From: Cirrosporium novae-zelandiae
Taxonomy: Eukaryota
Direction: 5' to 3'
NCBI GenBank assembly: GCA_026023565.1
Contig: JAPETS010000051.1
Coordinates: 124,001-162,717, forward strand
Length of the DNA: 38,717 nucleotides
Position 1 is the stretch's first letter. Every line of letters starts with the position of its first letter. Made by a program: the position numbers and the translations under genes. Under the pieces are notes generated by a model, which was given only the letters and a program-made list of their open reading frames with translations, was not told the DNA's origin and searched no databases. This document shows positions 5,055-31,245 of this stretch, one piece after another.

Positions 5055-6164
5055 ATGTCTCCCACATCCACCTTCACCAGCATTCCAATCCTCGACCTCT
5101 CACTGGCGCGCGATGCGCAAACGAAACCTGCCTTCCTCGCCGACCTCCGCCATGCGCTCCTCACCGTGGGATTCCTCTACATCACCAACACGGGCATCCC
5201 CCCGGACCTCATCTCAACGGTGATATCCCAAACGCACTCCTTCTTCTCCCTGCCCATGGAAGAAAAGCTGCGCATCGAGATGAAAAACGCGAATTCCTTC
5301 CTGGGCTACTCCCGCCTAGACAACGAAATCACAGCGCACAAAATCGACCACCGCGAACAGCTCGACCTCTCAACCCCACACCCGCTTCCCGCGCCGGGAA
5401 GCCCCCTCTACAAAAACCTCCTCGCGCCAAACCAATGGCCCTCCCCGACCATGCTCCCTACCTTCCGCCCCATATTCGAGGACTACATCACCCGAATGTC
5501 GCATCTGGCCACAGAATTCACCTCTCTAATCGCCGAATCCATCGGTCTACCCGCAACAGCCTTCGACCGCTTCTTCGACAAGGACCAACAGCATAAGCTC
5601 AAACTTGTTAAATATCCAGACACTTCCACCACCACCACCACCCTCACCGACGACGAAGAAAAACCCATCACATCCCAAGGCGTCGGCCCCCACAAAGACA
5701 GCATGCTAACCTCCTATCTCCTCCAAGCAACCCCGCACCGGGGCCTGCAAGCCCAAAACGCCACCGGGGACTGGATAGACTGTCCCCCCCTCCCCTCAAC
5801 CCTCATCGTAGCCATCGGCCAGGGCCAGGGCCTCGAAGCCATCACAGCCGGCGTCTGCCGCAGCACAACACACCGCGTGGTATCCCCCGCCGCGGGGTCC
5901 GGCGCCCGCTACAGCATCCCGTTTTTTCAGGGCGTGAGCTATGATGCTAAGTTTGAGAGTATGGAGGGGTGGATCCCTGAGGAGGTTTTGGGACTCAGGT
6001 CGCAGGAGAGGAGGGGGGGTGGGGATAGTGACGGGGGGGTCGAGTTCACGTTTAAGATGGGGAGGTGGGATTGTTTGGGGGAGGCGACGCTTGCGAATAG
6101 GGTGAAGAGTCATCGTGATGTTGGGGAGGTTTGGTATCCGGAGCTTTTGAGGGAGGTAGGGTAG
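5055..6164 (+). CDS. 2-oxoglutarate/Fe(II)-dependent oxygenase (IPNS/DIOX-like), 369 aa, intronless
   Basis: IPILDLS..VGFLYI N-terminal DIOX pattern, GPHKD (HxD), distal His in STTHRV, and RYS (RxS) cosubstrate-binding motif. Confidence 0.9.
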   Translation: MSPTSTFTSIPILDLSLARDAQTKPAFLADLRHALLTVGFLYITNTGIPPDLISTVISQTHSFFSLPMEEKLRIEMKNANSFLGYSRLDNEITAHKIDHREQLDLSTPHPLPAPGSPLYKNLLAPNQWPSPTMLPTFRPIFEDYITRMSHLATEFTSLIAESIGLPATAFDRFFDKDQQHKLKLVKYPDTSTTTTTLTDDEEKPITSQGVGPHKDSMLTSYLLQATPHRGLQAQNATGDWIDCPPLPSTLIVAIGQGQGLEAITAGVCRSTTHRVVSPAAGSGARYSIPFFQGVSYDAKFESMEGWIPEEVLGLRSQERRGGGDSDGGVEFTFKMGRWDCLGEATLANRVKSHRDVGEVWYPELLREVG

Positions 6165-6690
6165 TTGCTGTAAGTTAGATGGATGAGTTGGTGGATGGAT
6201 GGAGTGGGGGGGTAGAGGGGGGGTGAGTGTATCTATCCTATCCCATTTCATTAAATAAAAAAGAAAACGAACAGAATGAACAAAACGAACAGAAAATAAA
6301 AAACATATTTACACATTTTTCTATACCCATACTCATACCCATGCATGCATAAACAACCTCCCTCTGACCCCAATACCCAATACCAATTCCTCTCTTTCTT
6401 CCCTTCTTCTATTTGCAATTCAACTCCAGGTCATTACATTAGCATCCATCCCACCCCTCTTCTATAAATAGAATGAATAAATATATAACATATACACACA
6501 CATTCATCAATCTAAAAAAATAATCTTTTTTTATTGAATCCTAAATTTTGTATTTTGTATCGTACAAATAACCTACCTCCTTGCCTTGCCACCTATTGTT
6601 TCCTTTCTTAAAACCTAAACCCAAACCTAAATCCAATTCTTAAAACTTTTTCATACCCCACCCACCCATCATACACACCCCACCTCAGTC

Positions 6691-9416
6691 TCAACTTTCC
6701 TCCCCCCCCCTCAAAACCGAAGGCGGTAAATCTCCCTCCCCAGTCCCCCACTCCCCTTCCCTCTCCGCCAAAACCAATTCCAAAACGCCCCCCTTGAGAA
6801 AAAACTCATGACCGATCCAATTCCTCTTATAGGATACCCTATCCAACCTAGCCTCCTTTACAAAAATCCTGTCATACCCGGCATCGAAGTTGACACATTT
6901 GATAGTTGCTGTGTTGCCGGTGACAGGGTTTGTGATACTGATGGAGGGGAAGAAAGGTGGGGTGATTAGGTAGACGTCTTGGCCGGCGACGGGGTAGAGG
7001 CCGAGCATTGCGAGGACGGCAAAGGCGCCCATGGCGCCGCTGTCGTCGTTTCCTGGGATGCCGTTGTAGGAGGCGTTGAAGAGGGAGGGGATGTAGGAGT
7101 GGGCGTATTTTGAGGATAGGCCCGGTCGGGCGGAGTAATGGAACTGGAAGACCGTGAGGAAGGCCTGCTCGTCGCCCATGTTTAGGAGGTTTGGGGTGCT
7201 GTGCAAGTATTCAAGACGCGCGGTGAAGGATTCTGGGCCGCCGAGGGTGGCGATTAGGGATTCATGATCGTGCGGGGCGAAGAATGTGTAGAGGAAGGAA
7301 CTGCCTTCGTAGGTTTCGTGACCGCCGGTGCCGAAGTAGCACGAGTCTGGGTTTAGCAAGGGGGAGCAGTAGAGGGGGTCTTGATAGGCGAAGGTGGTGT
7401 TTAAGAGGCGCGGTTGGAGGAAGCCGGTGAACGGGGTGACGGTGCCGTCAATGAACGATTGCTGGTTTGGGTTGTAGAGGTTCTTCCAGTTGAAGGACCG
7501 TGAGAGGTATTTGGTGGCGTCGTCGGGACGGTCCAGGTAGGTGGCGAGCCGTGAGATGCAGTAGTCGTCGTAGGCGTATTCCACCGTGCGTGAGATGCTG
7601 CGCGTGAAGGGACCAGAGCTGTGTTTGTCGTTGTAGGTGTGGTCGTCGAACGGTATGTAACCGACTGTTTTCCACGACGTGAGACCCCCGCGGCCTTCGA
7701 CGTTCCAGTCGTAGGGTTCGTCTTCTGCGTCCGAGACCACGGCTTCGTAGGCCATGTCCCAATCGATGGCCGCGCCGAGCGTGGTGTTGGCGAATTTGAG
7801 GTAAAAGTCCACTAGGACGATGTCCGCGTTTGAGCCACCTTGCGTGTAGCCTTTGCAGAAGGACATTCGACAATCGGGGAGTTTGCCTATGGGAAGTTAG
7901 AGGGAGGGGAGATATATAAGGAGGGAAATGGAAGTAGGAACCTTCGTGTCGATATATATCGATCAGAGCTCTGACCATCCGTGCTTGCGATTCAGGGTCG
8001 ACTATCGTAAGCAGAGGGTGCTGGCTCCTGAAGGAGTCCCAGATACTGCACTCGTCAGGTTCGAATCCACTAAAGGGTCATAAAGAGAGCACTGGCTCTT
8101 GAAACATACCAATAAAAAGAATCATAATAAGGCTCGGTGCTATGCCAAAGGGGATTCTCGCCCGTGTAATCTTGAGGGGATATCATCGTCCTATATATCC
8201 CACTCCAGAATACCTTTTGCAATTCTTCACTTACACCAGTAGCATCAACCTTGACAACGTCTAATTTCTGGCGCCAGGCTTCCCTGGCTACTCTCCGCGT
8301 CTTCCTAAAATTAAAATCCGGAATCTCATTCTCGGCGTTCCCGCAGGCTCGATCCACACTCAGGGCTGAAACCCCCACCCTCACGAGGATCTGATTATTC
8401 CTTGTGGGAGCTTCGAACTGCGTCCAAGCACCGCCGGATGTTAGACCCGGCATGGGCTTTACATAGAGATTCTTTAGGTCGTTCTCGGCAAAGTTGCTAT
8501 TCCAGATTCCTGTGTCACGCACAGGTGCGCCGGCGAAGTCTACGCAGAAATGAAGATCATAAGATCCTAAGCCGAACGAGGGGCCAAAGGTACCAGTCCC
8601 AGAGATGCGCCCAGTTTGGGGGTCGACAGATGCAGTTGCATGTTTACAGGCGGTATTGAGATCATTTAGGTCCACGAGGATTAAGGGGTTGAGAGGTGTT
8701 TGAGGATCAGTAGTATCCTGATCGGGAAAGGTAAACCTATATAAAGCAGAATGATTTGACACTGTCATTTCGGCACGAATAGAGGTATTAAGCGTAATGG
8801 AAAAGTATCCCGGGGTTGCTTCTACTGAATCATCTACCCATTGACTAGCTCGATCCGTTCTCGTGAATTTGCAATTATTAAGGTCACCGTCGGGGCAGCC
8901 GCTCTGTGGGAAAATGGGGAAGTTCCCTAGACCGTTAGACTGATTCCTATCAGCAACAAGTCTATTGCAACCTAGAGAAAGAATGCTATCAAAAAGGCTC
9001 TCATACTCCACCAGTCCCAGAATCATGCATGTGAGAAAATCCTATGATTTCTTTCCCATCAGTCGCGAAACCACCTTGGCCATCCTCGGTGGCATCTGCA
9101 ACGGCCTTCGCCATGCCTTGATCACGTTAGTATATTACTATTCTTTCAACATGGCTTTTGGGGGTTGAACCGTAGGGTAAAGTGGCTCCTGCAAATACAT
9201 GACCTATTGAAAAAAATTCTAGTAAGTGTTCAGAACGAAATTTAACGATCAGGACATTGTTCAACCTCCATGGGCAGTTCCGATGAGCGGATCTATGAAT
9301 TGTAACACGTCGGTTTTAGAAGAAGTAGAGGTGATAGGGTTGGCAATAGCTGAAAAGATAAAATGAAGAAATATGAAAGAGTGAAGAAAGCCATTGGAGA
9401 CTAGAAAATACATCAT
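6691..9416 (-). CDS. secreted GH92 alpha-1,2-mannosidase, 807 aa; exons 9416-9266, 9203-9171, 9116-9007, 8939-8110, 8045-7942, 7886-6691
   Basis: Hydrophobic signal peptide; IDPLIGT..GHVFAGATLPYGMAKAVAD, GFSHMHDSGTGG, YYDSFYCIWDSFR, TQGGSNAD, SRTVEYAYDD, GDEQ, PGNDDSGAM. Five introns yield 2424 nt in frame. Confidence 0.93.
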
Positions 9417-11612: not shown

Positions 11613-14600
11613 CTAAGCAGGCTCCAACGTACTAAGAGGCACATACTTTGCCTCCTCAGTACTCCTTCGGCCGACCAATCTCCCAACACCTCTAGCCCAG
11701 CGACCGAACACACTACTACTTCTCCCATCCACATTTCTGTCCAACTCCTCTTTTGCCAACCATTTAGGCCGTTTCCACAACTTTAATAGCAAACTGCTAG
11801 CCACGACACTTACACTACTAGCAGCCATTGCCATTCCAGCCGCCATTGGATGTACCATCGGTCCGCCAAATGGCAAAAACAACCCCATCGCAAAAGGTAA
11901 GCCAAGGACATTGTATATAGTTGCCCAAGCAAGATTCAACTTGATGCGGCCGAATATTGCCTTGGCGAGGCAGAGAGCCGCAGGAACGAGTAAAAGGTCT
12001 TCGGGCTGCATGAGTACGATATCGGCAGCCTCCATAGCGACATCCGTCCCACTCGCCAGTGCAATACCCACAGCGGCGGTTGCGAGAGCAGGGGAATCGT
12101 TGATGCCGTCGCCAACCATGGCTACTGTATATCCATCCGCTTGCAAGTCTGCAATGATGGACTGTTTCATAGGTGGCGTAACAGACGCGTGGACATTCTC
12201 TGGAGGGATGCCAGTTCGAGCAGCGACACTATGTGCTGTTGAAAGAGTGTCACCGGTGAGGAGAGAAGTCGAAATGTTCATGGCATGAAGAGCAATGATG
12301 GTAGAACGAGCAAGAGGTTTGATGGTGTCTGATAGGTGAAGGATGCCTGCGAAGCTGGAGCCAATTGCTATATAGATGCTTGTCGTACCATCACTAGAGG
12401 ATGATTTGGTATTATCATCGTCCATGAAGGCAGAGGGAGGGATAGTAACACCATTGGATTGGAGGAAGGTGCTTGTGCCGAGGAGGACATGGTAGCGGAT
12501 TCGGTCGGTAGAAGAAGCGGGTTCAACGGTTGCTGAAACACCGTTGCCCACAGTTGCAGAAAATTCGCCGATACTCCCATCAATGGTTCCGTCGTTACTG
12601 ACACCAAGCTCGGATTTGGATGCATTAACAATTGCTTTTGCAACAGGATGTTCACTCCCCATCTCGGCCAAACCAACAAGTGTCCACCATAAGCGTCTTC
12701 TCCATTCATTTGATCTCCAGACAGGTTCAATTCTAGTAATGGCAAGACTCATTTTCCCCATTGTCAGTGTTCCTGTCTTGTCGAATACAATATGATTAAT
12801 TTTGGTTGTTGTTTCGAGTGAAGCCCCACTCTTAAAAAGGATACCATTTTCGGCACCAACTCCAGTGCCGACCATTACTGCAGTAGGCGTGCTCAGGCCT
12901 AGGGCACATGGACAAGCGAAGACGATAACGGATATGCAGAGCTTGAGGCAAACGAAGAGTTTACCGCCACTCGCTTCATCCAAGAATATCTTCGGCGGGT
13001 GACTTAGGGCATGACTTAGGACCATCCAAATCATAAACGTGAGTAGACCAAGGGCAATGATTGCAGGAACAAAGTACCCAGCGACCACATCAGCCATTCT
13101 TTGAATCGGTGCTCGACTAGTCTGGGCATCTTGAACAAGTCGAACAATTTGGCTAAGTTTGGTATCACTTCCAGCGCGAGTCACCTTGAAGTCAACCCTA
13201 CCAGAACCATTGACTGTACCTGCCATGAGAATACTTCCGGCCTTTTTAACAATTGGATTTGCCTCTCCAGTGACCATGCTTTCATCAACATGCGTCTCAC
13301 CTCTGAATACGATGCCATCAGCGGGTATTTGATCTCCAGGACGAAGAAGAACCAAATCTCCTGTTTCAAGAAGGTCTGTTGAAACCTTCTTTTCTTCGAA
13401 TGGATTAGCGGCTTGGCCCTCTTCTCCACTTTTTTCGGGCTTTGGAATCGAAGTGTTAGTTTTACTCCATTCTTCTGTGGCCTTTTCTGCGGCGATTGGA
13501 TCGACGTAAATTGTTGCCATAGAAGGTGCAAGAGACATAAGACGGGAAAGTGCTCTTGATGTCTGGCCTTTTGCCCTGTTTTCGAGATATCTTCCGAGGG
13601 TGATAAATGTGATGAGCATTGTGCTTGTATCAAAAACGGTCCCGGGTCTGGTATGCGGAGGGCAGAATACCGACACAAGAATGGCAGTAACACTAAAGAA
13701 GAACGCAGCAGAAGTGCCAAGGACAACAAGAACATCCATAGTTGGAGATCCGTGCCGTAATGACTTGAATGCGGATTTGTAAAATCGAGCTCCGATACCA
13801 AATTGAACTGGGATTGTGAGAAGCATGCAGACAATGTCTCCAACATAAAGGCCTGGAATGATCATACAGGAACCATAGTCCAATATTGGAAGGTACATGG
13901 GTATTAACATGCTAATGCAAAACACGGGTATAGCTAAGAAAAGTGAGATCTTGAATGTACGCCACCATTCCTGAATCTCTTTTGTTTTTGCCAATGATTC
14001 CAGTTGTGCATTATTGTCATCTGAATCTGCCAATATAGCATTGCAGCCGGTTGCTGGGACAGCATCAACAATCCTTCGTAGACCTACTAATAATGGATCA
14101 TATGTTACGGTAGCTCGGGAGTTGTCCACATTGATGGTGACACCGATAACTCCAGGAAGCTGTCGCAATGTATTCTCAACCTTCGCCGCTACCAATGATG
14201 CTGATTCTACGGCAGCTTCGGTATCTACAGTGCTGTCCACGAAGCGCCCTCGAGAGTCCTGCTGAGAACGTTGTAGGCCAAACAACTTTAGTTGGGTAGT
14301 CGCAGACGACTTCGACTGAATTTCGTTTGCTGCCACAGTTGAGAGTAATCTCGCATCGAATCCTGTATCCTCGATCGTTTCCATTATGTTCTCCACTGAA
14401 AGTATCGAAGGGTCATGAGAGATGACAGCTCGTTCCGCTAAAAGGCTGATGTTGAACCGGACCATTCCTTTCACGTCCTTAAATGCATTTTCCACAGCAG
14501 CAGTACAGGCACCGCACGTCATTCCTTCAACAGCGACCGTAGTCGTTGCCACCATCGGAATATTATTGTTACTTCTTCGTTTCTGTTCCCCCGAGACTTT

Positions 14601-15131
14601 TGCCTCCGCTGTCTTGACATCTAACACTTTAGCATCAAAGCCAATATCCTCAATCACGGTAGCAAGTTCATCAGGCTTGATGACCAATTCATCATGTTCA
14701 ACGACAGCCCGATTTGCCATTAACGAAACAGTTATTGTTTTGACTCCATCAACATTCTTGAAGGCGCCTTCTACAGCAGAAGTGCATGCGCCGCAAGTCA
14801 TTCCCTCCACCGCCAACGTCGTTGTAGAGAAAGCAGCTTTATCGTCGGCTTTATCGGAAGGGTCTGTTGAGAGAAGGTCCGTAGATAAAACTTCGGCGTC
14901 GAAACCACAATCTTCTATCGTTTCCTTGACTTGTTCGACATTGACCATGCTCGGGTCATGACGGACAACCGCTCTACCCATGATCAAGCTCACAGAAACA
15001 TTTTCAACACCATTCATAGTTTCGAATCCCCCTTCTACCGCCGCAGTGCAGGCACCACAAGTCATCCCATCCACGCGGAGAGTTGTGGTAGCCATGTGCG
15101 CGGTGGGGGCATCCGGATTTATGGCATCCAT
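11613..15131 (-). CDS. ccc2: P1B-1 copper-transporting ATPase (Ccc2/CtpA-like), 1172 aa, intronless
   Basis: Three GMTCGAC metal-binding domains plus one degenerate HMA domain; TGE, CPC, DKTGT, SEHP, GDGIND, YN and MxxSS motifs. Confidence 0.95.
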   Translation of the reverse strand: MDAINPDAPTAHMATTTLRVDGMTCGACTAAVEGGFETMNGVENVSVSLIMGRAVVRHDPSMVNVEQVKETIEDCGFDAEVLSTDLLSTDPSDKADDKAAFSTTTLAVEGMTCGACTSAVEGAFKNVDGVKTITVSLMANRAVVEHDELVIKPDELATVIEDIGFDAKVLDVKTAEAKVSGEQKRRSNNNIPMVATTTVAVEGMTCGACTAAVENAFKDVKGMVRFNISLLAERAVISHDPSILSVENIMETIEDTGFDARLLSTVAANEIQSKSSATTQLKLFGLQRSQQDSRGRFVDSTVDTEAAVESASLVAAKVENTLRQLPGVIGVTINVDNSRATVTYDPLLVGLRRIVDAVPATGCNAILADSDDNNAQLESLAKTKEIQEWWRTFKISLFLAIPVFCISMLIPMYLPILDYGSCMIIPGLYVGDIVCMLLTIPVQFGIGARFYKSAFKSLRHGSPTMDVLVVLGTSAAFFFSVTAILVSVFCPPHTRPGTVFDTSTMLITFITLGRYLENRAKGQTSRALSRLMSLAPSMATIYVDPIAAEKATEEWSKTNTSIPKPEKSGEEGQAANPFEEKKVSTDLLETGDLVLLRPGDQIPADGIVFRGETHVDESMVTGEANPIVKKAGSILMAGTVNGSGRVDFKVTRAGSDTKLSQIVRLVQDAQTSRAPIQRMADVVAGYFVPAIIALGLLTFMIWMVLSHALSHPPKIFLDEASGGKLFVCLKLCISVIVFACPCALGLSTPTAVMVGTGVGAENGILFKSGASLETTTKINHIVFDKTGTLTMGKMSLAITRIEPVWRSNEWRRRLWWTLVGLAEMGSEHPVAKAIVNASKSELGVSNDGTIDGSIGEFSATVGNGVSATVEPASSTDRIRYHVLLGTSTFLQSNGVTIPPSAFMDDDNTKSSSSDGTTSIYIAIGSSFAGILHLSDTIKPLARSTIIALHAMNISTSLLTGDTLSTAHSVAARTGIPPENVHASVTPPMKQSIIADLQADGYTVAMVGDGINDSPALATAAVGIALASGTDVAMEAADIVLMQPEDLLLVPAALCLAKAIFGRIKLNLAWATIYNVLGLPFAMGLFLPFGGPMVHPMAAGMAMAASSVSVVASSLLLKLWKRPKWLAKEELDRNVDGRSSSVFGRWARGVGRLVGRRSTEEAKYVPLSTLEPA

Positions 15132-16595: not shown

Positions 16596-16685
16596 CTCCC
16601 CCGCGTGGGCTCGAACCACGAACCTCCCGGTGTGCAACTGTATTGTATAACAGCCGGACGCGCTAACCAGTTGCGCCACGGAGGA
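16596..16685 (-). tRNA. tRNA-Asn (GTT) with a 16-nt intron (16647-16632)
   Basis: Minus strand TCCTCCGTGGCGCAACTGGTTAGCGCGTCCGGCTGTTA[TACAATACAGTTGCAC]ACCGGGAGGTTCGTGGTTCGAGCCCACGCGGGGGAG. Acceptor stem, D-arm, T-arm, intron at position 37/38 and discriminator G are all present. Confidence 0.95.
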
Positions 16686-17607: not shown

Positions 17608-18252
17608 CTATAAATTGACGTGAGGATTGAAAGACGCAAAATAGTTTAGATTTTGATCAAGTTCAACGGAATAGTCGTTTTCTGCATTTGTATCAGCGTC
17701 CTTATTTTGCTTTCCTAAGTGCTTGGGTTGTTGTTTCCAGCCAGAAGACAGTGTACCTCCTACCGTAGCTTCATGCTGAGCTTTATTTGTTAGTACTTTG
17801 AGCACATTAAACTTAATGAAGCGCTGTCTCTGTAGCTTGTCGACATATTCTTCCAAATCCTTCAATGAGGAGCCTTTGAGCACGAGTGAGGTTCTATTGA
17901 TAATGCATGGCTTCAAATTTATCAGTGGGAGGATCAAAATTTCTTCAACACGAACATACGAGAGTCGAGGAAGTCTTGACTTTTGGAATTGAAGTTGCAA
18001 CCCGCTGCCTAGATTATCGGAGCGTTGGCTTGGATATATAGGAATGTAGTATCGGCTATTAATGGAACGTTCCCGCTTTGACGTGATAGTGACAACGAGA
18101 ACCCAACCATCCAGCGTTGACTGCCGAAGCACTATAGCCATGTGCATTGCGATTCGTCTAGCGATTTTCATCAGGGGGATGCCACGGGCAACACATTCGT
18201 TCTCTGGGATAAATCGGTGTACACGCCCAAGAGAAATTGAAAGTTCAGTCAT
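17608..18252 (-). CDS. hypothetical protein, about 214 aa, with a PemK/MazF-like sequence pattern in its first ~140 aa
   Basis: First ATG of the 232-codon open frame is at 18252 (MTELSISLGRV). Pattern HMAIVL..VLVVTITSK..YIPI..LPRLSYVRVEEI..L..SLKDLEEYV, followed by a polar tail. Recognised by eye only. Confidence 0.6.
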   Translation of the reverse strand: MTELSISLGRVHRFIPENECVARGIPLMKIARRIAMHMAIVLRQSTLDGWVLVVTITSKRERSINSRYYIPIYPSQRSDNLGSGLQLQFQKSRLPRLSYVRVEEILILPLINLKPCIINRTSLVLKGSSLKDLEEYVDKLQRQRFIKFNVLKVLTNKAQHEATVGGTLSSGWKQQPKHLGKQNKDADTNAENDYSVELDQNLNYFASFNPHVNL

Positions 18253-19970
18253 CGTAAGAAGGAATGTAAAGAGGGGAAAGCCAGAAAAATCCCAAAAGGA
18301 AACCAATGATATTGCTAATCTTGTAATTAGTTCTGTCGTGTAGTTAAAGATGCACCCTCTATGTGCGGCCCTATTGCCCTATTTATCTTTGTAAGAATAT
18401 GTTCGTGCCTTAGACTTAGTGGTCTCGGTGCTCTGAGACAGATGTGGGTAGAATACTTTTGAGCCTTGTCTGTGTTCAAGTATCAGAGCATTAATCATTC
18501 CGTGCACATAGCTCCCATTGTTAACAACAATCTGGAGTGAACAAAGGCCCATTGTAAGTTTCGTTTAGTAGAATAGAGTTGAAATGTAACTATGGTAATT
18601 GTTCTTATTGGCGTAAGTATATGAAAGCCTTGAGTCTGTTGTTTTGAAGAGGGAGAATCTTTATCTCGAGGTATTGTTTGCAACGCCAAAAAATCGCAAC
18701 CCAGATCTTCTGCCGCAACATAGGTTTGAAACTGAGAATCAACACAAGCTTCGTTCACACAGTGATATAATGTCACAGATGTATCTATGCTCCCTGTTTG
18801 AGTTTTAAACAAGCCAATGTGTGCTAGATCCATTCGCGAAAATGGGCATACATTTTCAAACGTCAGAAGGTCGACAGAAACGACATTGAATTCAAGACCT
18901 CAGTCGTCTAATATCCGGAATTTTCGACAAGTGAGTATGCAGTTCCATCCCTAGCAAAGTCACGAAACCACAGTGTAGTCGAAACCTCCTAGTTATCTCA
19001 GGAAAAGTGAGTAGCACCTAGTGTGTTAAAGTTGGATGTACCTGGTCACAAAGTATTCCAAGGTGAGTGCGGCATAAACATGCTCGGATGTTGAATTTTG
19101 AACCTTGGTCTTAAGTGGATTATAGTTTTTTATCATAACATATATTCGAGAAAACCCAACGGATCGAATGAATCCACTACACAAATCGTGAGCTAATGAC
19201 TCGCATTCGTCGGTATCCCTCTTTCTGGAGGCGAGGGGCCAAGCAAAGGAATTTATATTACATCAGAACAAAATGTTAGAAGCAGTAGTTCTGCCACGGC
19301 TTGCGAGGTCGACTTCGCTGCCGATCAAAGAGTTGAACCAGACAATTCAACTACTCGCAGCTTAAAAACTAAAATCAGATACATGCAAAATTAGAAGACC
19401 TATAGGGCACTGTTAGCGAAAATAGACATTGGCAGATTGCAAAAGGAATGTAAAAAGGTGGAAATGAGAAGAAATATGGTGAGTATACGGTCCGGGGTGT
19501 AATTATCATTATACTGAATCGTGTCGACTTGATTGCGCAAATGTGATTGTTGATATTATCGACATACACTGGTTGGATAGGCATTTGGGCAACAATCTGT
19601 TCGTTGTAAAAAATAGTTCGATGCAGGCCATTACAAGAAAATGCGAAAGAGAGATCTTTCGAAGAGGGAGCTCGAGGCATTGTTGCTAGAGTAGAGGATC
19701 TTCTCCAGTAGTTTTCAGAATCGCATGTAGTTGTCGTTGCGGCTTCACTTCGGATGTGAACGAGGATAAATCGTCATGACTTGTTCCATGATGAAACCTG
19801 TGCAGCCCCCACGAGTGCGTCTGGTGGATATTTGTGCAAATCTGCCTGAAGAGCTATTCTTACCAAAAATTAGAGTGGCCGACAATGAGTTGTAATCCGA
19901 ATGGACAAAATGATGTGCAGATGACAGTGGTCGGCCGGTAATCCGGCATTACAGCCAATATCAGGCACAT

Positions 19971-20828: not shown

Positions 20829-21864
20829 ATGCCTGCTTCTCCCACCGTCAAGCTCGCCAGCGGCCACGAAATGCCCCTCGTGGGCTTCGGTACCTGGAAA
20901 CTCACCGGCCAGGAAGCCACTGATGCCGTTTACCAGGCCATTAAGATGGGCTACCGTCTGATTGATTGTGCCCAAGGTACATATCCAAACCCTAGCTCAA
21001 ATTCCTGTCCTCAACTAAGATACTGACGTCCTAATTCCAGACTACGACAACGAGAAGGAAGTCGGTGCTGCTGTCCGCAAGGCCATCGCCGACGGTCTTG
21101 TCAAGCGTGAGGAGCTCTTCCTCGTCTCCAAGATCTGGAATCAATTCCACGACTTCAAGCGAGTGGAGCCCATGTGCCGCAAGCAACTTGAGGACTGGGG
21201 CGTCGACTACTTCGACCTCTACCTCATGCATTTCCCCCTCTCCTCTCGCTTCGTTGACCCCGCCAAGCGTTACCCGCCAAACTTCTTCGAAGAGGATGGC
21301 AAGACCCTCGTGGCTGACGGTGAAGCCACAATCCAGGAAACATGGACTGCTATGGAACACCTTGTGGACAGGAAAATTGTTCGCAGTATCGGCATTTCCA
21401 ACTTCCAAGCTCAACTCCTGATGGATCTCCTCCGATACGCTCGCATTCCCCCATCAACCCTCCAAATAGAACACCACCCATACCTCGTCCAACCCGCTCT
21501 CGTCAAATATGCCCAACAACACGGCCTCCGCGTGACCGCCTACTCGTCCTTCGGCACCGCCTCCTTCCTCGAAATGGGTGTCAAGCAGGCTTTCGACACC
21601 CCTCTCCTTTTCGACCATCCCGTTATCAAGAAGATTGCTGAGGCACACGGCAAGACTTGCTCGCAGGTCCTCCTCCGATGGTCTACCCAGCGCGAAATTG
21701 CTGTTCTGCCAAAAGCCACTGATCCTACATTCGTCGCCATGAATCTCGACTCCACGAGTTTCGACCTCACAGAGAAGGAATTCGAGGAAATTGACGGCCT
21801 CGACAGGAAGCTAAGATTCAATGACCCGTTGAACTATGGTTTCTTTATTCCATGCTTTGCATAA
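20829..21864 (+). CDS. xyl1: D-xylose reductase, aldo-keto reductase family 2B, 323 aa; exons 20829-20976, 21041-21864
   Basis: [17 protein letters not shown]; catalytic tetrad D (IDCA), Y (QDY), K (SKIWN), H (MHFP); [26 protein letters not shown]. Intron 20977-21040 GTACAT..CTGAC..CAG. Strong C-ending codon bias. Confidence 0.92.
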
Positions 21865-30150: not shown

Positions 30151-31245
30151 CTATCTCCTTATCCGCATATCAGACATACTATCATCAGAATCATCCCCCC
30201 TCCCGCAAGACGCATTATTCGACCACCTTTCAATATTTCTTCTTCGTGGATTTTTGCTTTTGTTTTCATATCTTCTACCTAAATTCCAATCGATTGTGGC
30301 TTCATTGTCGCCATTGTTATTATGGTTGGGTTTCCGTCTGGATGGTCGTTGATGAGCTCTAATAATTGGTGGAGGGCCGATGAATACGGGACCTTGAAAA
30401 TCGTCTGGCAGGTTTGGGTTGGTGGAGGAAGTGGAGGAGGATGAGGAGGGGCGGCATCCGCAGTGGCAATTGCGGTGGTATCGGAGTTTGAAGTCGTTGT
30501 GGTTGCTGTCATGATGATGGTTGTAGACGTGATTGTTGTAAGTGTGGGGCTGTACTATTTTGATATTTGGAGTTGGACATTTTTCGGATTTCCGTTGGCG
30601 GGGTGGAGGAGATGGAGGTGGGCTGGGGGGACAGGGTGGACTAAGTGAAGGTGGTGGAGAATGTGGAGGACGTGGACGTGAATATGGTGAAGGGGATGAT
30701 CCCCGTTGCTGGTCTGGTGATAAATTGACTACTTGTTGTAGCTGATTTAACATTGGTTGTGGCTGTTGTTGCTGGTGGTGTTGGTGGTGTGAATGTTCTT
30801 GTAGCTGTAGTTTTAGTTTTTGGTGTTGGCGTCGCTGTTTCTGCTTTTGTTGCTGTAGTTGTAGTTGTAGTTGCTGCCGGTCTAGCTCTTGCTGATGGCG
30901 TTGTTGTTGTTGCTGCTGCTGTAGCTGTGCTTGTTGTCGTTCTTGTAATTGTAGTTGCTCGCGGTGTAACTCTTGCTGACGGTGTTGTTGTTGCTGCTGC
31001 TGCTGTAGCTGATATTGTCGTTGATCTTGTCGTTGATCTTGTAATTGTAGTTGCTCGTAGTTTTTTTGTTGCTGCTGCCGTAGCCTTTCTATTGAATGTC
31101 TGTTTTGTATTACTTCATAATGTAGCTCGGGCGATCTCGGTTCTGTGGATCTCCTAACCAAATAATGACGTTTTATGTGTGGTCCGTTTTTGCATGTGGG
31201 TTTCCATTCTCTGGTTTCAATATAGAATTTCTCTCCACAACCCAT
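30151..31245 (-). CDS. orphan low-complexity Q/H/P-rich protein, about 364 aa (alternative upstream ATG at 31365)
   Basis: 404-codon open frame; likely start MGCGEKFYIETREW. Contains Gln-rich internal repeats, a Pro/Ser block and a His/Cys patch. No family recognised. Confidence 0.55.
   Translation of the reverse strand: MGCGEKFYIETREWKPTCKNGPHIKRHYLVRRSTEPRSPELHYEVIQNRHSIERLRQQQQKNYEQLQLQDQRQDQRQYQLQQQQQQQHRQQELHREQLQLQERQQAQLQQQQQQQRHQQELDRQQLQLQLQQQKQKQRRQHQKLKLQLQEHSHHQHHQQQQPQPMLNQLQQVVNLSPDQQRGSSPSPYSRPRPPHSPPPSLSPPCPPSPPPSPPPRQRKSEKCPTPNIKIVQPHTYNNHVYNHHHDSNHNDFKLRYHRNCHCGCRPSSSSSTSSTNPNLPDDFQGPVFIGPPPIIRAHQRPSRRKPNHNNNGDNEATIDWNLGRRYENKSKNPRRRNIERWSNNASCGRGDDSDDSMSDMRIRR

Follow-up and report, generated by a model that had tools for sequence, protein, structure and literature searches.

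The window analyzed here, 38,717 nucleotides of a 162.7-kb contig of Cirrosporium novae-zelandiae, is fungal and carries spliceosomal introns and housekeeping genes. An ORF of 214 aa (P0001; 17608..18252, minus strand, one exon as read) is the longest frame of the 5.7-kb gap between a gene for a heavy-metal P-type ATPase with four HMA matches (11613..15131, minus strand), which we take to be Ccc2-like, and an intron-containing aldo/keto reductase gene (20829..21864, plus strand). In a Markov simulation of the gap, an ATG frame of at least 214 codons arose in 2 of 500 simulated gaps. The ORF is single-copy in the 31.4-Mb assembly. A preliminary description had placed it alone between two housekeeping genes; the flanking genes are as described, but the gap also contains an intron-bearing tRNA-Asn gene (anticodon GTT; 16596..16685, minus strand), which lies 922 bp past the ORF stop and was detected by Rfam and missed by ARAGORN. 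Two or three similar tRNA copies are present elsewhere in the genome and, these copies excepted, no repeats of the gap were found elsewhere in the genome.

All motifs quoted in the preliminary description (GRVHRF, HMAIVL, VLVVTITSK, YYIPI, LPRLSYVRVEEILILP, and SLKDLEEYVDKL) were found in the ORF. Residues 1 to 146 (17815..18252, minus strand) comprise the predicted MazF/PemK-fold domain, as delimited by an AlphaFold2 model, structure search, and family alignment, while residues 147 to 214 (17611..17814, minus strand) form a tail that is unconserved in the alignment with relatives and has a GC3 of 0.32 versus 0.47 in the domain. Sequence signals define a candidate 37-nt intron (17776..17812, minus strand) with the donor GTTTAA, the branch site TACTAAC, and CAG; the donor is weak and the length short, while the branch site is perfect, and splicing would result in a protein of 151 aa, which is the family length. 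An ACTAAT branch-like site and a TAG, followed by a pyrimidine tract, are located at 18315-18331 on the minus strand, 60 to 80 nt upstream of the ATG, and represent a possible 5' UTR intron. Repeat-induced point mutation (RIP) at the ORF was considered and ruled out based on a composite index of −0.55.

A small, patchy family in Pezizomycotina

The ORF is not an orphan, as had been proposed. While a single-protein word-indexed search returned only the ORF itself, phmmer against 1.84 billion representatives gave two additional proteins (E values of 2.6e-6 and 5.8e-6) from Trichoderma pleuroticola and Microthyrium microscopicum, and a profile of the three proteins retrieved 23 proteins, these seeds included, among 1728 candidates. 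The 23 proteins comprise seven Trichoderma proteins, Microthyrium and Pseudogymnoascus members, and unnamed records, with members also from metagenomes. Thus, three fungal classes are represented. A profile of 16 relatives, from which the window row was left out, scored the ORF at 71.4 bits, and the start Met and Gly9 of the ORF align with those of its two closest relatives.

Members have a typical size of ~145 aa, and full-length members are mostly 142 to 164 aa, leaving residues 147 to 214 of the ORF without counterpart. Among the rows covering each column of the 23-row alignment, G9 (15/15), H37 (15/15), M38 (18/18), W50 (16/16), and Y99 (22/22) are invariant, and T57 is present in 19 of 22, the three misses being due to gene calls that read through an intron. 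The non-catalytic motifs YxPIxP and SYVR are kept equally well. A search for longer forms (376 to 2000 aa) scored 8000 candidates and yielded none, although this result carries little weight, and no relatives were found in plasmids or in viral or prokaryote genomic sequences using the motifs of one subgroup or one sequence as queries, which reach close relatives only.

The window copy shares 25 to 38% identity with all relatives, sits on the longest branch of the tree (1.69), and carries a 5-residue deletion. The gene tree is discordant with taxonomy in that the Trichoderma atroviride protein groups with that of Microthyrium; it is 73% identical to the Pseudogymnoascus protein (over 82 aa) and 60% identical to the Microthyrium protein (over 139 aa) but only 28 to 30% identical to the other Trichoderma proteins. 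Transfer between classes, or old paralogy combined with loss, would both explain this discordance. Altogether, these data show that the ORF is a real gene and belongs to a small, patchy family in Pezizomycotina.

Predicted fold and putative active site

Using AlphaFold2 on residues 1 to 150 with 17 alignment rows, we obtained a best model with a pLDDT of 80.3 and a pTM of 0.75; the five models scored 80, 73, 70, 47, and 42, two of them being poor. In the model, strands span residues 10-14, 38-44, 50-57, 69-74, 85-88, 98-109, and 113-115, together with a C-terminal helix at residues 127-148, and residues 1 to 150 are basic (pI 10.3). Foldseek against the PDB placed Staphylococcus aureus MazF first (E 8.6e-4, the sole match past 0.001), with MazF, PemK, CptN, or ToxN entries filling all 31 rows shown. 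In a Foldseek-independent search of 48,161 chains, the top 15 (CptN, PemK, several MazF, Kid, CcdB, ToxN, and AbiQ; Z 7.0 to 10.2, 91 to 119 residues aligned) all belong to the MazF/PemK/CcdB/ToxN superfamily, and rank 16 has a Z of 5.5. CptN was the best match (Z 10.2, rmsd 3.3, 119 residues aligned), and a repeat structure search agreed. Identities in the structural matches are 9 to 19% with an rmsd of 3 to 4 Å. The best BFVD match was a phage PemK/MazF (E 2.5e-4); the ESM Atlas model matched PemK clusters with a TM of 0.73 to 0.80 by target, and the language-model features likewise indicate PemK. The order of elements is that of MazF, running from an N-terminal G-x-V through the two motif strands to the C-terminal helix. 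Two independently made models (AlphaFold2 and ESM Atlas) and four structure searches therefore agree on the PemK/MazF fold that was first proposed from motif order, and the predicted assignment to the MazF/PemK/CcdB/ToxN fold is almost certain.

By sequence, no naming match was found in Pfam, the PDB sequences, PADLOC (0/3), NCBIfam, or PHROG. None of 19 family members matches PF02452, and no PF02452 match was found in the C. novae-zelandiae genome, while 4 of 14 control genomes gave matches. A Period_C match (Pfam, E 0.05), which covers only the tail, and PHROGs matches, which are weak (E 0.017 or above), were rejected. Homodimer prediction without an alignment scored 0.00 in two runs and was counted neither way.

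The fold shared with MazF, PemK, and Kid (PF02452; 4MZM from S. aureus, 5CKB for Escherichia coli MazF, and 1M1F for Kid) extends over residues 1 to 146 (Z 9 to 10, rmsd ~3 Å), and the order of elements, the Thr at the Thr52 site, and the basic character of the protein are alike. In contrast to MazF, the fungal family consists of eukaryotic genes with an intron in relatives, has no PF02452 match, and no MazE-type gene was found; it has His-Met in place of Arg-Pro and Thr-Ile-Thr in place of Pro-x-Thr, and is ~35 residues longer, with a helical insert in the first loop and the YxPIxP hairpin. The family probably works like MazF, while by the tests made it is neither a member of PF02452 nor a type II or type III toxin-antitoxin system. 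The fold is also common to the type III toxins CptN (4RMO), ToxN (4ATO and 7D8O), and AbiQ (4GLK), of which CptN is the best or joint-best match and ToxN and AbiQ have a Z of 7.0 to 7.5. The family resembles these toxins in its length with inserted loops and in a Thr-Ser pair like Thr52-Ser53 of ToxN, and it appears to have a His where ToxN has Lys33; it differs in that the window locus lacks upstream tandem (~35-nt) RNA antitoxin repeats and in an identity of 10 to 12%. CcdB (1VUB) has the same fold (Z 8.7) with a lower score and a shorter alignment (91 residues). It provides a precedent for a non-RNase use of the fold, its target being gyrase, which to our knowledge is absent from fungi.

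In the portions of the sources available, Arg29 of E. coli MazF is described as both acid and base and Thr52 as stabilizer (PMC8887465), mutations of Arg29/Thr52 abolish most activity in another MazF (PMC10893535), and the ToxN active site is listed as Lys33, Thr52, and Ser53 (PMC5086642). A profile-profile alignment of the family with 12 bacterial MazF/PemK rows weakly matched H37-M38-A-I-V-L with R29-P30-A-V-V-L and V54-T-I-T57-S with V49-P-C-T52-T, thus returning the register that had been read by eye from the motifs, with HM at the position of RP and the Thr kept. This register has a P of 0.048 and a probability of 1% and beats 99 of 100 column shuffles, the remaining one having reached its score; a global alignment of the profiles did not discriminate, being no better than shuffles (36/100). 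The alignment weakly supports that His37 (codon at 18142..18144, minus strand) corresponds to the catalytic Arg29 and Thr57 (codon at 18082..18084, minus strand) to the catalytic Thr52 of E. coli MazF. The catalytic Arg is absent, and the near-invariant MazF prolines P30 and P50 are both replaced. Among the 12 bacterial rows, one also has a His at this site: the PemK encoded by plasmid pHG1 of Cupriavidus necator (L028:186-548) has HP for RP, scores 79.7 bits, above the PF02452 cut-off, and follows a MazE-type gene. Close relatives of this PemK are present in 14 plasmid records. Lys33 of ToxN indicates that the basic residue varies within the superfamily and, together with the His of the pHG1 PemK, argues that the conserved His37 characterizes the family and would be compatible with catalysis, rather than being a sign of decay. 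H37 and T57 rank among the best-conserved polar residues of the family, and the family-wide conservation of HM makes a variant catalytic site more likely than a dead fold.

Gene structure, selection, and genomic context

A metagenome scan with one subgroup gave seven loci from 178 pattern matches. All seven carry an intron of 47 to 61 nt (GT...CTAAT...AG) directly before the codon pair leading to Thr57; the window copy lacks this intron. We calculated dN/dS for 15 pairs among six sequences, leaving out L014 and L015 as near-duplicates. In the six diverged pairs with measurable dS, dN/dS was 0.13 to 0.20; a single near-identical pair, differing by 12 changes, had a ratio of 1.3, and the remaining eight pairs, including every pair with the window copy, were saturated. 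Between the window copy and its relatives, pN (0.51 to 0.55) is lower than pS (0.78 to 0.85). An in-frame stop lies within the domain at three of the seven metagenome loci, and Thr57 is changed to Ile at two of the seven. Thus, homologues under purifying selection, on which the preliminary description had made its proposal depend in part, exist, and the relatives have a eukaryotic gene structure.

At two of the seven metagenome loci (L013 and L014), a DUF3435 gene lies 1.4 to 1.6 kb upstream of the relative and is oriented toward it. A DUF3435 gene at the 5' end of the element defines Starships, according to the part of the original work available (10.1101/2021.12.13.472469). L012 to L015 share a 2.1-kb block that is 95 to 99% identical, after which the flanks diverge, and only at these loci is a MYND-finger gene present divergently upstream of the MazF-like gene. 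Because of this block, L012 to L015 count as one lineage, and the link to Starships derives from this lineage; L017 is surrounded by ordinary metabolic genes. The block also contains a broken frame without a Pfam match, which is presumably kinase-like, and a weak SRF/MADS-like frame (E 0.018), and at L015 it adjoins a YDR124W-like gene. We found no evidence for the role in non-self recognition that had been suggested for the ORF. Its relatives show a link to a Starship-like mobile element.

The C. novae-zelandiae genome has at least 17 DUF3435 matches (on contigs C48, C90, C13, C45, C53, and others), some with stops. None is on the contig of the window, and the genome thus holds Starship-type recombinase genes elsewhere; no convincing Starship terminal repeats, target-site duplication, or element ends were found in the gap. 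For a partner gene at the window locus, we scanned 30 of the 61 frames that reach at least 45 aa in the gap; none matched a Pfam family, and a partner of a new kind or one split by introns could still be present. The gap contains no RNA antitoxin array, only micro-repeats of 8 to 9 nt and chance pairs, and Rfam detected only the tRNA in it. As the search around the ORF yielded no antitoxin, we do not classify the window locus as a type II or type III toxin-antitoxin system. Toxins carried as Starship cargo, e.g., the Spok poison-antidote genes as described in the available part of the same work (10.1101/2021.12.13.472469), resemble the family in a patchy, discordant distribution and in the DUF3435 neighbor of relatives; in contrast to Spok, the MazF-like protein is unrelated, the window locus is without a captain, and the killing role is putative.

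Proposed function and wider fungal relatives

MazF/PemK RNases are a textbook class of prokaryotic toxins. In the part available, a survey from 2008 reports no eukaryotic sequence that qualified under its toxin-antitoxin criteria (PMC2446400). In the literature searched, which consisted mostly of non-subscription papers, we found no description of fungal MazF/PemK-fold proteins, and the available part of the main text of PMC11162782 has nothing on the neighbors of the MazF-like relatives. Our findings suggest that a toxin class which to date has been studied only in bacteria and archaea has a counterpart of its own in some fungi.

We propose a model, to which we give an even chance, in which the ORF encodes a His/Thr MazF-like endoribonuclease that acts as a conflict gene. 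According to this model, the family would have descended from the MazF/PemK/ToxN superfamily, and its members would be ribosome- and metal-independent endoribonucleases that hold single-stranded RNA on the basic β-barrel. His37 would take over the acid/base role of Arg29 and Thr57, like Thr52, would stabilize the transition state, generating product ends with a 2',3'-cyclic phosphate. The family would represent a costly conflict gene that has been long conserved, often knocked out, and scattered across classes, and that in one lineage may be carried inside a Starship-like element; its job would likely be cell arrest or killing, either for the benefit of the element or against RNA invaders. The window copy would be a divergent, intron-less member that now resides between housekeeping genes. 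A lone toxin needs some control, and the lack of an identified partner therefore counts against a toxin; such control might come from tight repression, from an unlinked antidote, or from a target motif that is rare. We slightly favor RNase activity for the family as a whole, hold it to be somewhat less than an even prospect for the window copy, and consider the conflict role more tentative still.

Two alternatives concern the origin of the ORF. Its base composition is similar to the intergenic background, as might be the case for a chance frame or bacterial contamination; however, the ORF is flanked by fungal housekeeping genes within a contig of 162.7 kb, has relatives that are in named fungi and carry GT-CTAAT-AG introns, and gave no relatives in prokaryote genomes, viral contigs, or plasmids in searches that reach close relatives only, and we consider such an artefact extremely improbable. 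It is also very unlikely, if less extremely so, that the protein is a mere SH3/KOW-type barrel with a helix and without MazF/PemK descent. Although the low identity (9 to 19%), the rmsd of 3 to 4 Å, a best Z of ~10, and the lack of an HMM match in five libraries would fit such convergence, the 15 superfamily matches (91 to 119 residues) are set apart from other barrels (Z of 5.5 or below), the G-x-V, motif strands, and C-terminal helix occur in MazF order, and the language-model features point to PemK.

The remaining alternatives accept the fold. The protein could be a nucleic-acid binder or a CcdB-like protein poison without RNase activity, in which His37, Trp50, and Thr57 are kept for binding or structure. 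The absence of the catalytic Arg and both MazF prolines, the presence of CcdB among the top structural matches (Z 8.7), the equal conservation of YxPIxP, SYVR, and other non-catalytic motifs, and the lack of an antitoxin in the frames scanned at the window locus all fit this explanation. Nevertheless, the two sites used for catalysis by MazF hold some of the best-conserved polar residues, a His occupies the same site in the antitoxin-paired PemK of pHG1, and histidine is a competent acid/base; we therefore regard a lack of RNase activity throughout the family as rather unlikely, although a clearly stronger contender than convergence. Slightly less probable is that the family is or was active, while the window copy is a stranded, drifting relic, possibly a retrocopy, whose frame is still open but which has ceased to be functional or expressed. 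The long branch and 25 to 38% identity, the lack of the intron found at all seven metagenome loci, the 5-residue deletion, the unconserved 68-residue tail, the single-copy status, and the frequency of inactivated copies in the family are as expected for a relic. However, the frame is intact (2/500 by chance), the start position, G9, H37, M38, W50, T57, Y69-P74, and S98-Y99-R101 are all retained, pN is below pS, and the RIP signature is absent. Among these explanations, we prefer the His/Thr endoribonuclease.

The MazF-like fold might extend to additional fungal proteins. DUF6590 (PF20233), a fungal family of ~150 aa whose label carries no function, has nine matches in the C. novae-zelandiae genome, none of which is on the contig of the window. 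The copies (L002 to L010) are on contigs C41, C46, and C78, three of them within ~11 kb on C41, and at least one has a stop. The order of motifs in DUF6590 (G-x-V, an RRF-hydrophobic strand, and PI-x-T) resembles that in MazF, and its N-terminal half aligns weakly with MazF (P 0.003 to 0.005) with an Arg at the Arg29 site. In a profile-profile comparison of DUF6590 with the family of the ORF, P was 0.13; neither the ORF nor its family matches PF20233, and the predicted DUF6590 model (pLDDT 37.5) was too poor for structure search. As a lead only, and judged by sequence, DUF6590 may be a sister family with the MazF fold; a database-level note on its fold may exist somewhere. In the ESM Atlas, two unnamed Ascomycota clusters (363 and 396 aa) match the Atlas model of the ORF better by query (TM 0.75), and the top feature match is an Ascomycota cluster of 183 aa; these clusters hint at a wider fungal group.

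In its broadest form, our hypothesis states that filamentous fungi carry unrecognized MazF-type RNase toxins, comprising the His/Thr family and probably also DUF6590 and the three Ascomycota clusters (183, 363, and 396 aa), that were spread between classes by Starships and serve as effectors of addiction, spore killing, or antiviral cell death. We consider this generalization doubtful; if true, these proteins would be the first MazF-class mRNA interferases in eukaryotes. The family raises the testable questions of whether fungi have mRNA interferases, whether His can substitute for the catalytic Arg, and whether Starships carry small addiction or defense RNases besides Spok. It also provides a hypothesis on the fold of DUF6590 and may yield new sequence-specific RNases for bench use.

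Additional features of the window and the assembly were noted. A 364-aa frame at 30151-31245 (minus strand) lacks a Pfam match and contains long Gln/His runs as well as Pro-rich ones. The 2OG-Fe(II) oxygenase and GH92 genes at 5055-9026 have a GC3 of 0.73 to 0.75, while that of their neighbors is 0.41 to 0.43. Contigs C47 and C35 have a tRNA match with identical coordinates (270611-270722) and scores, which suggests a duplicated contig in the assembly.
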